Shown piece by piece: positions 23,134 to 24,053 of a DNA stretch of 64,000 bases. The DNA lies in IMG/VR virus record IMGVR_UViG_3300017975_000002; one strand, 5' to 3'. The stretch is from a virus. The notes under the pieces are model-generated. The model was given only the letters and a program-made list of their open reading frames with translations. It did no database searches and had not been told where the DNA came from. Position numbers and translations under genes: made by a program. The stretch's first letter is position 1, and every line of letters starts with the position of its first letter.

Positions 23134-23706
23134 ATGAAGAACGTAACCATCATAGGTGCAGGCGCTCTTGGCTCGCATGTCGTGCAGTTCCTGCGCGGTG
23201 AGGCCAAGCTCCGCGTGATCGACTTCGATCGTATTGAAGCCAAGAACGTGCTCGCGCAGTTTCACGGCAAGTCGCACATTGGCAAGTCCAAAGTCGAAGC
23301 ACTCAAACAGACCATGAACTTTCTGTGGAACGTCAAGGTCGATACGATCCCGCACAAGCTTGTACAGAACAATGCAGATGCGTTACTTGGCGGCTGGGAT
23401 TTGATCATCGATACACTCGACAACGGCGAAGCTCGACGCATCGTACAGGCCTACGTACGCGCGCATAACACGCCGTGCCTTCACGGCGCGCTCGCTGCTG
23501 ATGGAGCGTTCGGACGCGTGATCTGGGACGCGCAGTTTGTAATCGATGAAGAGGACAGCCAAGGTGCACCAACGTGCGAAGGCGGCGAGCATCTTCCGTA
23601 CATTGGTATAGTCAGCGCCTACCTTGCACGTGCTGCTCAAGTCTTCTTGCGGCACGGTAAGAAAATCGGCTTCTCGATCTCGCCGACCAACGTTATCCAG
23701 GTCTAG
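23134..23706 (+). CDS. E1-like ThiF/MoeB-family protein (short form)
   Basis: 'VTIIGAGALGSHV' Rossmann motif, 'RVIDFDRIEAKNVLAQ' and 'DLIIDTLDNGEARRIV' match ThiF/MoeB E1 motifs; only 190 aa. Confidence 0.7.
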   Translation: MKNVTIIGAGALGSHVVQFLRGEAKLRVIDFDRIEAKNVLAQFHGKSHIGKSKVEALKQTMNFLWNVKVDTIPHKLVQNNADALLGGWDLIIDTLDNGEARRIVQAYVRAHNTPCLHGALAADGAFGRVIWDAQFVIDEEDSQGAPTCEGGEHLPYIGIVSAYLARAAQVFLRHGKKIGFSISPTNVIQV

Positions 23707-23708
23707 CC

Positions 23709-24053
23709 ATGGCTCGTGCTCACCTGCAAGGTTACGTCACGCAGAAACTCGGATTATCGCTCAACGAGCGACTCCGACGTCTCATACACAGCCGTATCGA
23801 ATACGGAATTGAATCCGACTTTGCAGTGAGTTTCGAGGTATCGAACGTCTTGGGCGGTTTCAGTCCAGTGACCGAAGACGAGTTTGCTGCGCATCCAGGC
23901 GAGCGAAACATCGGAATCTTCGGTGCCGGTAATCCAACCGAGGCTTTGCGGCTACTGTTGGAGGCGTATCCTGACGCTACCGTGCTCGTGCGACGCGACG
24001 GCAAACGTCGTCGACCGCTTCGCAAGAGGAAGGTATCGCGCCATGCCCGATGA
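23709..24053 (+). CDS. hypothetical protein (internal '...VLGG' then extension)
   Basis: Directly follows the E1-like gene. Residues ~1-50 end in VLGG and are followed by a 64-aa tail. Confidence 0.45.
   Translation: MARAHLQGYVTQKLGLSLNERLRRLIHSRIEYGIESDFAVSFEVSNVLGGFSPVTEDEFAAHPGERNIGIFGAGNPTEALRLLLEAYPDATVLVRRDGKRRRPLRKRKVSRHAR

Follow-up and report, generated by a model that had tools for sequence, protein, structure and literature searches.

A compact E1-like enzyme encoded by a phage belongs to a conserved five-gene cassette with a JAB protease and a probable beta-grasp modifier

Introduction

The archaeal SAMP/UbaA/HvJAMM1 system and the TtuB/TtuC system of Thermus each combine a small beta-grasp modifier bearing a C-terminal glycine, a single MoeB-like activating enzyme (E1), and a JAMM/JAB protease, and both dispense with UBC-type conjugating enzymes (E2) and with ligases (E3). 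Here, we describe a similarly built locus in the IMG/VR virus record IMGVR_UViG_3300017975_000002, of which we analyzed a stretch of 64,000 nucleotides (hereafter, the window) belonging to a metagenomic contig of 64.4 kb. A 190-residue E1-like enzyme encoded at 23134..23706 is part of a five-gene cassette together with a candidate ubiquitin-like (Ubl) modifier, a JAB protease, a protein with a vWA domain and metal ion–dependent adhesion site (MIDAS), and a 315-residue protein that we call P315. Judging from sequence comparisons, we consider it probable (approximately 0.7) that the enzyme activates the modifier of this five-gene module, in a JAB-processed and E1-activated Ubl pathway that probably serves conjugation.

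The module resembles the SAMP and TtuB systems in having neither a UBC-type E2 nor an E3, and UbaA is among the better matches of its E1. It departs from them in several respects: The E1 is about 80 residues smaller, with no Arg finger, RQ arginine, or zinc motifs; the modifier has a Phe/Tyr-Gly end rather than Gly-Gly and forms a new sequence family; the vWA/MIDAS protein and P315 are obligate partners; and the genes are carried by phages. By sequence, the closest relatives of the E1 lie in the ThiF/ThiS, MoeB/MoaD, and CysO/Mec+/MoeZ systems, where the C-terminal Gly of a beta-grasp protein is likewise adenylated and a JAB protease (Mec+) trims CysO/QbsE. However, the cut-offs of those families are missed by far here, rhodanese and sulfur-relay partners are lacking, the modifier has a different terminus (F/Y-G), and the associated proteins are different.

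The module would also work in the manner of the bacterial Ubl defence systems, but comparison with these is similarly mixed. CBASS Cap2/Cap3, Bil (BilABCD), and Bub all contain a recognizable UBC-type E2, either fused or separate, whereas none is detectable here; moreover, those systems serve host defence, whereas phages (and Myxococcota as well) carry the present module, which comes without a CD-NTase or effector. Phages themselves offer a partial parallel in TAPI (a Ubl protein) and TAPK (a JAB-NlpC/P60 protein) of lambda and T1 (PMC1779556), where a phage Ubl continues beyond its conserved C-terminal Gly with an additional part and the JAB is predicted to cut directly behind that Gly. In contrast to our locus, TAPI and TAPK have no E1 and lie in the tail-assembly block; here, a dedicated E1 is present in a non-structural region, the JAB protein lacks NlpC/P60, and vWA and P315 proteins are added. 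Also among the closest known systems are the MIDAS–UBL recognition of Mdn1/Rea1 (with Ytm1/WDR12 and Rsa4/NLE1) and the proteasomal pair of Rpn10 (vWA) and Rpn11 (JAB), while the vWA-MoxR/FtsH ternary systems, which include Ubl ligases (PMC7159879), have a different architecture. A survey of jumbo phages (PMC7824862) mentions neither JAB nor ThiF, and we found no description of the five-gene module in the literature searched. What is new is a minimal E1 outside the named subfamilies, a new Ubl sequence family, two novel partners, and carriage by phages.

A five-gene cassette of fixed order

The cassette was first seen in the neighborhoods of three members of the E1 family, on contigs of 150–430 kb, where the E1 gene is accompanied by genes for a ~630-residue protein whose C-terminal part is a vWA domain, a ~310-residue protein, a JAB protein, and a ~88-residue protein. 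The genes lie on one strand in the order vWA/MIDAS protein, P315, JAB, Ubl, E1. When the cassette members were used as tblastn queries, all five found their match in the window, with order and strand preserved:

3248..5113, plus strand: VWA621, 621 residues; N-terminal ~415 residues without domain assignment, C-terminal vWA domain with complete MIDAS
7294..8241, plus strand: P315, 315 residues; a central coiled-coil-like stretch rich in Arg and Glu, and a C-terminal domain with a lone invariant Cys
14330..14716, plus strand: JAB/JAMM metalloprotease, 128 residues; E3, H50-x-H52, S61, and D64
15070..15510, plus strand: candidate Ubl precursor; core of residues 1–99 (15070..15366) ending in ...IRPKTAYG, and a Cys/His-rich tail of residues 100–146 (15367..15507)
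23134..23706, plus strand: compact E1-like adenylating enzyme of the ThiF superfamily, 190 residues, with an ATG start and a Pfam ThiF match

We examined co-occurrence in 76 phage loci, comprising 71 IMG/VR loci fetched with an E1 profile (mostly contigs of 100–620 kb) and five earlier loci. Within the 10 kb upstream of E1, in fixed order and strand, the JAB gene was present in 71 loci, the Ubl gene in 70, P315 in 71, and the vWA gene in 68, and in those 68 loci the vWA gene is the first gene of the cassette. Five loci show no partner at all: Two are truncated upstream (L062 and L063), two hold very distant E1s (L077 and L078), and one (L041) is unexplained. The cassette also occurs in 297 stretches of bacterial species genomes; all bacterial counts given below refer to the best 80 of these, mostly from Myxococcota.

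In most relatives the entire cassette fits within 3.5–5.5 kb, and the Ubl gene sits immediately upstream of E1; in one locus (L004), the Ubl stop and the E1 start overlap by 4 nucleotides. The window holds the most dispersed version, with the vWA gene starting 19.9 kb and the Ubl gene 8.1 kb before the start of E1; unrelated genes have been inserted between the cassette members in this phage. A first-pass annotation of the window, made from the sequence alone, had suggested that the phage encodes a minimal set for Ubl activation; this holds for the combination of E1, JAB, and Ubl, with the JAB–Ubl–E1 order found in 70 of the 76 phage loci, provided that the Ubl is taken to be 15070..15510.

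Among 50,697 deposited phage genomes, cassette genes were found only in Virus Rctr197k and, distantly, in LR756511, both from uncultured phages. The JAB, Ubl, and E1 genes of Rctr197k, the nearest deposited phage, form a single cluster, and the vWA gene is present in that genome as well; its E1 is annotated as 'ThiF-like' and its other cassette genes as hypothetical, while LR756511 is unannotated. The latter (LR756511.1), a 595-kb genome, encodes an E1 with 36% identity and, ~5 kb upstream on the same strand, a vWA homologue with 26% identity; this may be a megaphage with a remotely related form of the cassette. At the DNA level, the window showed no similarity to deposited phages except over a 59-bp stretch of RtcB.

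The compact E1-like enzyme

The open reading frame (ORF) at 23134..23706 matches Pfam ThiF (PF00899) with E=1.8e-24, its 86.7 bits comparing with a gathering score of 28.1, and G8, G10, and G13 of its GxGxxG nucleotide loop are present and invariant. Among solved structures, that of E. coli MoeB is closest (E=9e-9), with those of Uba4, SUMO-E1, and NEDD8-E1 coming next. In alignment with MoeB the protein starts at approximately residue 31 and ends at approximately residue 226, and it is therefore truly compact; the family is very uniform in this respect, with nearly all of its 1386 matches at E<1e-5 falling at 190–192 residues. The first-pass description of a short E1-like protein with a GxGxxG loop and ThiF character, smaller than MoeB, was thus accurate.

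Conservation of the active site supports the same assignment. Residues D30, K53, D96, and R101 align with the ATP/Mg-binding residues D62, K86, D130, and R135 of MoeB, and C148 (in 'TCExG') aligns with C187 of MoeB, the crossover-loop Cys, which corresponds to the C184 position of ThiF and to the catalytic Cys position of E1s. All nine of G8, G10, G13, D30, K53, D96, R101, H117, and C148 are kept in 78 of 78 divergent bacterial copies. Loss of the catalytic Cys and of the ATP-binding residues had been proposed as a sign that the E1 assignment was mistaken; instead, the candidate catalytic Cys (C148) is kept, as are most residues of the ATP site.

At the same time, the enzyme reaches no cut-off of the named NCBIfam E1 equivalogs (ThiF, MoeB, UbaA, MoeZ, and TcdA). 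Its top match there, ThiF (TIGR02356), scores 77.1 bits against a cut-off of 275; UbaA scores 61.5 bits against 450 (E=7.7e-17), and TcdA 27 bits against 304. Among the PADLOC models, those of the CBASS Cap2-type E1–E2 proteins match with E=3e-17.

A candidate modifier with a conserved C-terminal glycine

The 99-residue core of the product of 15070..15510 is predicted with high confidence to adopt a beta-beta-alpha-beta-beta arrangement, with the tail disordered in the model, and the match lists from fold searches are dominated by beta-grasp domains, including those of ISG15, FUBI, MOCS2A, BilA, and the UBLs of WDR12/NLE1. Searches of the family against PDB sequences and Pfam models gave no match, and in a viral structure library the only match was the Rctr197k orthologue. 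We regard 15070..15510 as a member of a new, divergent modifier family whose fold is probably a beta-grasp. Within the core, E53 is an invariant acidic residue.

The C-terminal signature of a glycine-ended precursor is seen directly in the sequences. In an alignment of 47 family members, conservation runs as far as an invariant ...RPKT[PA][FY]G, after which the sequences diverge completely. Among 46 unique phage sequences, 43 contain the motif; 7 of these end at the Gly, 24 continue for 1–5 residues, 6 for 6–30, and 6 for more than 30. The same distribution was obtained in broader form from 150 representatives drawn from the 290 clusters of an exhaustive profile search, where the motif is present in 122 (10 ending at the Gly, 54 with 1–5 further residues, 14 with 6–30, and 44 with more than 30); of the remaining sequences, which lack the strict motif, the majority nevertheless terminate in ...FG. 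In bacteria, G99 is conserved in 58 of 58 copies, with the ...P-K-x-x-F-G end kept in 100%.

The long tails are unrelated modules, among them HNH endonuclease, wHTH, Zn-ribbon, RyR, and Lockin domains. The 47-residue tail encoded in the window (15367..15507) is a Cys/His-rich mini-domain of the form 'H.HC.H...MVVPDG..V..CC.C...H..H.H', which recurs in two relatives (P0188 and P0262). From its composition this tail may bind zinc, and it would be freed by JAB cleavage.

An HNH endonuclease family is a frequent companion of the cassette. It is represented in the window at 10444..11025 (plus strand), lies in or next to the cassette in 34 of the 76 phage loci, and in one sequence (P0317) is fused in frame straight after the terminal Gly of the Ubl. 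The repeated insertion and the fusion suggest a mobile endonuclease that targets the cassette.

The JAB protease

The window JAB protein matches Pfam Prok-JAB (PF14464) with E=1.2e-4 and 22.3 bits, below the 25-bit gathering threshold; its orthologue in the bacterial locus L153 passes that threshold at 31.2 bits. Each of the JAMM residues E3, H50, H52, S61, and D64 is kept by at least 95% of the 59 phage homologues and by 52–54 of the 54 bacterial ones, and the spacing from H52 to S61, as read from the sequence, is 8 residues where 7 is usual. With its JAMM residues conserved, and with the same order and strand relative to E1 in 71 of the 76 loci, the JAB at 14330 that had been connected with the E1 in the first-pass annotation is both real and linked to it.

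Directly before the JAB gene, a DUF7352 protein is encoded at 13978..14337 (plus strand, E=7.3e-16), its stop overlapping the JAB start by 8 nucleotides. We considered it as a cassette member and rejected it, as it was not found near E1 in other phage loci; in one of them (L003), the DUF7352 gene lies elsewhere on the opposite strand.

P315 and VWA621

Homology among P315 proteins begins at M6 (7309). Of the 76 phage loci, 71 have the gene, as do 64 of the 80 bacterial ones, and in each case it lies between the genes for vWA and JAB. All 103 sequences compared share G275 and C277 of the motif G275-x-C277-L278; C277 is the sole universal Cys, and there is no invariant His. Searches against Pfam, PDB (also with a profile), PADLOC, and NCBIfam gave no match. 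Since 'GiCL' resembles the 'GxICLD' of E2 enzymes, P315 was considered as a UBC-type E2, using an E2 profile built from four sequences verified against PDB; hhalign returned a probability of 0.5%, which, together with the lack of any PDB match, leaves UBC homology unsupported. A lone invariant Cys is nevertheless what a thioester carrier would need, and P315 could, from this pattern, act as a carrier of a non-UBC kind.

The vWA domain of VWA621 matches Pfam VWA_CoxE (E=2.7e-8) and VWA_2 (E=1.5e-6), and 45 phage and 44 bacterial copies all share its MIDAS residues (D429-x-S431-x-S433, T492, and D519). The rtcR/rtcBA surroundings of some loci (see below) raised the possibility of a Ro60/Rsr protein, in which TROVE and vWA domains are combined; a search of 45 family members at E<=1 gave no TROVE match, and the family profile retrieved from PDB only vWA proteins and no Ro60. 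None of the PADLOC models matched the Ubl, P315, or the vWA protein.

Bacterial copies of the cassette

Bacterial carriers include Corallococcus, Myxococcus xanthus, and Pyxidicoccus fallax, with cultured strains among them, and a complete 8.4-Mb chromosome. The partners of E1 are each found in 55–67 of the 80 bacterial loci, with the Ubl present in 67, and most of these loci share the gene order and strand of the phage cassette. Although the bacterial proteins are only 23–46% identical to those of the window, the functional residues of E1, the Ubl end, the VWA621 MIDAS, and the P315 Cys are all kept.

Some bacterial neighborhoods contain genes of RNA metabolism. In L153 (JADJBV010000001.1, a 6.9-Mb contig, 196..9932), the cassette directly follows rtcR and is divergent from rtcB-rtcA, and L157 shows a similar rtcB/rtcR adjacency. 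In L144 (CP120527.1, the complete 8.4-Mb Myxococcaceae chromosome, 9274..14254), E1 is followed by a 1089-residue fusion of a ClpB-like AAA+ protein with a PCRF (release factor) domain, and then by RNase J; the cassette there also neighbors a histidine kinase. The unusual ClpB–PCRF architecture beside RNase J is suggestive of ribosome or RNA quality control. A general link of the cassette to Rtc does not hold, as just 2 of the 80 bacterial loci and 5 of the 76 phage loci have RtcB or RtcR nearby and the adjacency is thus sporadic; we retain it as a lead, not as a conclusion. Beyond the cassette in L153 lie an Hsp70-like gene and a topoisomerase–RecQ fusion.

A proposed pathway

A pathway consistent with these observations would begin with synthesis of the Ubl as a precursor with a dispensable tail, as the invariant Gly followed by unrelated tails indicates. 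The JAB protease, given its intact JAMM site and its strict co-occurrence, would cut after Gly99 and expose the ...F/Y-Gly carboxylate, and it may also reverse conjugation. The E1 would then bind ATP–Mg and adenylate Gly99, as its conserved D30, K53, D96, and R101 suggest, and the acyl group would presumably pass to the invariant crossover-loop Cys148 as a thioester. From there, one may speculate that transfer occurs directly to a target amine, as in the E2-independent archaeal SAMP system, or by way of Cys277 of P315 as a non-UBC carrier, and that the vWA/MIDAS protein acts as a receptor for the Ubl, an adaptor, or a substrate.

Several observations weigh against this pathway. The Arg of the 'N-L-x-R-Q' motif (MoeB R73) is absent from the E1, position 41 being Ala or Ser in all sequences; the enzyme also lacks both CxxC zinc motifs and, because it starts at approximately residue 31 of MoeB, the N-terminal Arg-finger helix (MoeB R14). 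With these elements missing, its handling of ATP must differ from that of MoeB. On the question of an E2, the search for HPN-motif E2-like genes proposed in the first-pass annotation found none among the ~35 ORFs scanned between 3.2 and 27 kb of the window, cassette proteins included, and the same scan gave no UQ_con or Prok-E2 Pfam match. Finally, the cassette genes are up to 20 kb apart in the window, where their co-expression is only presumed.

A more ambitious version would see in the cassette an undescribed Ubl conjugation pathway common to jumbo phages and Myxococcota, in which the P315 Cys is the carrier, the vWA/MIDAS protein recognizes the modifier or selects substrates, and RNA damage or translation stress is the arena. 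The last element is suggested by the position of the cassette next to rtcR/rtcBA in two bacterial loci and next to ClpB–PCRF and RNase J in one, and by the presence of RtcB in the window phage and in five other phage loci. We offer this version as a tentative one, with the odds against it as a whole.

Alternative explanations

Among the alternatives, the one that best survives is a role in sulfur transfer, in which the Ubl would be adenylated and converted to a thiocarboxylate for synthesis of a cofactor or thiolated nucleoside, as in ThiS/ThiF, MoaD/MoeB, CysO/Mec+/MoeZ, or TtuB/TtuC, with the JAB serving as a maturation protease only. ThiF and MoeB are the closest named families of the E1; trios of JAB, Ubl, and E1 are known in the CysO/QbsE-type sulfur pathways (Iyer et al. 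2006, PMC1779556); no E2 was found; and tRNA and RNA-repair genes are nearby. However, the E1 lies far under the ThiF/MoeB equivalog cut-offs (77 vs 275 bits). It carries no rhodanese, and neither the cassette proteins nor those flanking genes that were scanned gave a PP-loop, sulfurtransferase, or desulfurase match. The families of sulfur carriers typically end in Gly-Gly, whereas the modifier ends in F/Y-Gly in every sequence. The F/Y-Gly end and the missing sulfur-relay partners both argue against a sulfur carrier, and neither of the universally linked vWA/MIDAS and lone-Cys proteins resembles a sulfur acceptor enzyme. We regard this explanation as unlikely.

Host defences based on Ubl proteins are established (PMC10097602, PMC10557695), and one could imagine that the main targets of the phage JAB and E1 are host Bil, Bub, or CBASS Cap2/Cap3, for instance with host Ubl being stripped from virions or cGAS-like enzymes and the phage Ubl serving as a decoy. 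The E1 match to the Cap2-type E1–E2 models (E=3e-17) and the presence of a Tad2-like anti-Thoeris gene in the same accessory region as the module would fit with such counter-defence. Yet the same cassette occurs in bacterial chromosomes, beside rtcR/rtcBA (L153) or a histidine kinase and RNase J (the 8.4-Mb chromosome), and such contexts sit poorly with a role directed purely against the host. Neither the JAB nor the Ubl is nearer to Cap3 or BilA than to other families, and a decoy leaves the vWA and P315 partners unaccounted for, which makes this a highly improbable account of the module.

There is also only a slim chance that the E1-like protein does not activate a Ubl at all and instead adenylates a nucleic acid or small molecule in an RNA-repair context, as TcdA (tRNA ct6A), HcgE, or MccB would. 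Its compactness, the lack of the Arg finger and zinc site, the presence of RtcB 1.2 kb downstream, and weak matches to TcdA (E=3e-6) and HcgE (E=0.003) could be read in this way, but those matches are many orders of magnitude below the ones to ThiF, MoeB, UbaA, and the Cap2-type E1s. In addition, the crossover-loop Cys is invariant, and the gene is strictly linked, often with overlaps, to those of a beta-grasp-like protein with a C-terminal Gly and of a JAB. We therefore rejected a TcdA-like tRNA enzyme and return to activation of the Ubl at 15070..15510 as the preferred reading.

The gene downstream of E1

The first-pass annotation had assigned the part of Ubl precursor to the gene that follows E1:

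23709..24053, plus strand: ORF114, a small basic orphan protein outside the module; 114 residues, ATG start 2 nucleotides past the E1 stop

Both ORFs exist as annotated, at 23134..23706 and 23709..24053, and the internal diglycine is present, in the sequence SNVLGG at residues 45–50 of ORF114. However, given the amino-acid composition of the window, GG is expected by chance in ~45% of proteins of 114 residues (it occurs in 11 of the 37 window ORFs of 90–150 residues), and its presence here is thus not beyond chance. Only two homologues of ORF114 were found among 5.8 billion proteins, both on contigs of ~1 kb where the genes upstream are unrelated to E1. LGG is kept in both, and the sequence after it is as conserved as that before it, and therefore unlike a removable tail, which would be expected to vary. 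Pfam, PHROGs, PADLOC, NCBIfam, and phage genomes gave no match. An AlphaFold2 model, built from only 3 sequences and with a mean confidence (pLDDT) of 38.7, is too weak to rule out a beta-grasp; what this low-confidence model predicts is a helix over residues 3–31 and one short strand, with no beta-hairpin or beta-grasp.

The genomic evidence comes from co-occurrence: None of the 76 phage loci or 80 bacterial loci that carry E1 has ORF114. No conserved gene lies 3' of E1 in any related locus; the gene found there in relatives encodes a 2OG-Fe oxygenase, an HNH endonuclease, a product on the opposite strand, or a 354-residue hypothetical protein. The last of these, downstream of ThiF in Rctr197k, was considered as a counterpart of ORF114 and rejected, as it has no similarity to the window. 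ORF114 has no part in the module, and the true Ubl partner of E1 is the JAB-adjacent 15070..15510. The trio that had been expected to be co-conserved (E1, JAB, and ORF114) was not found; what is co-conserved is the trio with the corrected Ubl, plus two more genes. The idea that ORF114 is a JAB-trimmed Ubl precursor activated by the adjacent E1, its first 50 residues forming a beta-grasp that ends in VLGG, is already contradicted on genomic grounds by these 156 loci and is very nearly without prospect, since the 2-nucleotide spacing from E1 and the retained LGG are set against a length of 50 residues that is too short for a beta-grasp, a helical if weak model, conservation beyond a GG of chance frequency, homologues without an E1 neighbor, and a far better candidate upstream.

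What the cassette may offer

The E1 observation and the JAB link are confirmed, and the earlier Ubl assignment was wrong and is corrected here. The finding gains in interest over its first statement in that the E1 is one member of a five-gene Ubl module that is widespread, conserved, and uncharacterized, with more than 1,300 E1 homologues, 71 viral contigs, and 297 bacterial stretches. Bacterial Ubl conjugation has recently become known as a weapon against phages (CBASS Cap2/Cap3, Bil, and Bub), and here a stripped-down equivalent is carried by phages. The module offers a tractable minimal system in which to ask how little suffices for Ubl activation and transfer, as well as a possible non-UBC route of conjugation, and it allows one to test for protein tagging by phages during infection, possibly linked to RNA repair. 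For annotation, the replacement of ORF114 by 15070..15510 mends a gene assignment that had seemed plausible and was wrong.

Neighboring genes in the window

An RtcB RNA ligase is encoded 1.2 kb downstream of E1, at 24925..27144 (plus strand, Pfam E=1.5e-115), and is interrupted by an intein of ~340 residues with homing-endonuclease-like content, with extein junctions (marked by a slash) at '...AVMPD/CLDEDTEV...' and '...FITGN/CHFGIG...'. Approximately 2 kb beyond RtcB lie a tRNA-Arg(TCG) at 29303..29369 and a second tRNA-like element at 29588..29659, both on the plus strand; the second has an Rfam tRNA score of 48 bits and no ARAGORN call. Y RNAs and other known non-coding RNAs were considered near the module and set aside, as Rfam gave only these tRNA-like elements, ~5.6 kb downstream of E1.

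Between the Ubl and E1 genes, an MVP/SPFH-like gene at 16535..19219 (plus strand, 894 residues) matches MVP_shoulder (E=4.6e-24) and Vault_3 (E=5.7e-10); PHROGs gave no match for it, and no copy was found near the cassette in the 76 related phage loci. The dispersed cassette also encloses a gene for a protein with a Tad2-like (Thoeris anti-defence 2) domain, at 9708..10199 (plus strand, E=2.9e-26). Accessory nucleotide, RNA, and ADP-ribose functions are interleaved with or near the module, in the form of a dCTP-deaminase-like gene (6415..7014, E=3.7e-33), an Rv2179c-like 3'-5' exoribonuclease (8786..9532, E=4.6e-8), and an ADP-ribosylglycohydrolase (30685..31617, PHROG E=1.2e-40).

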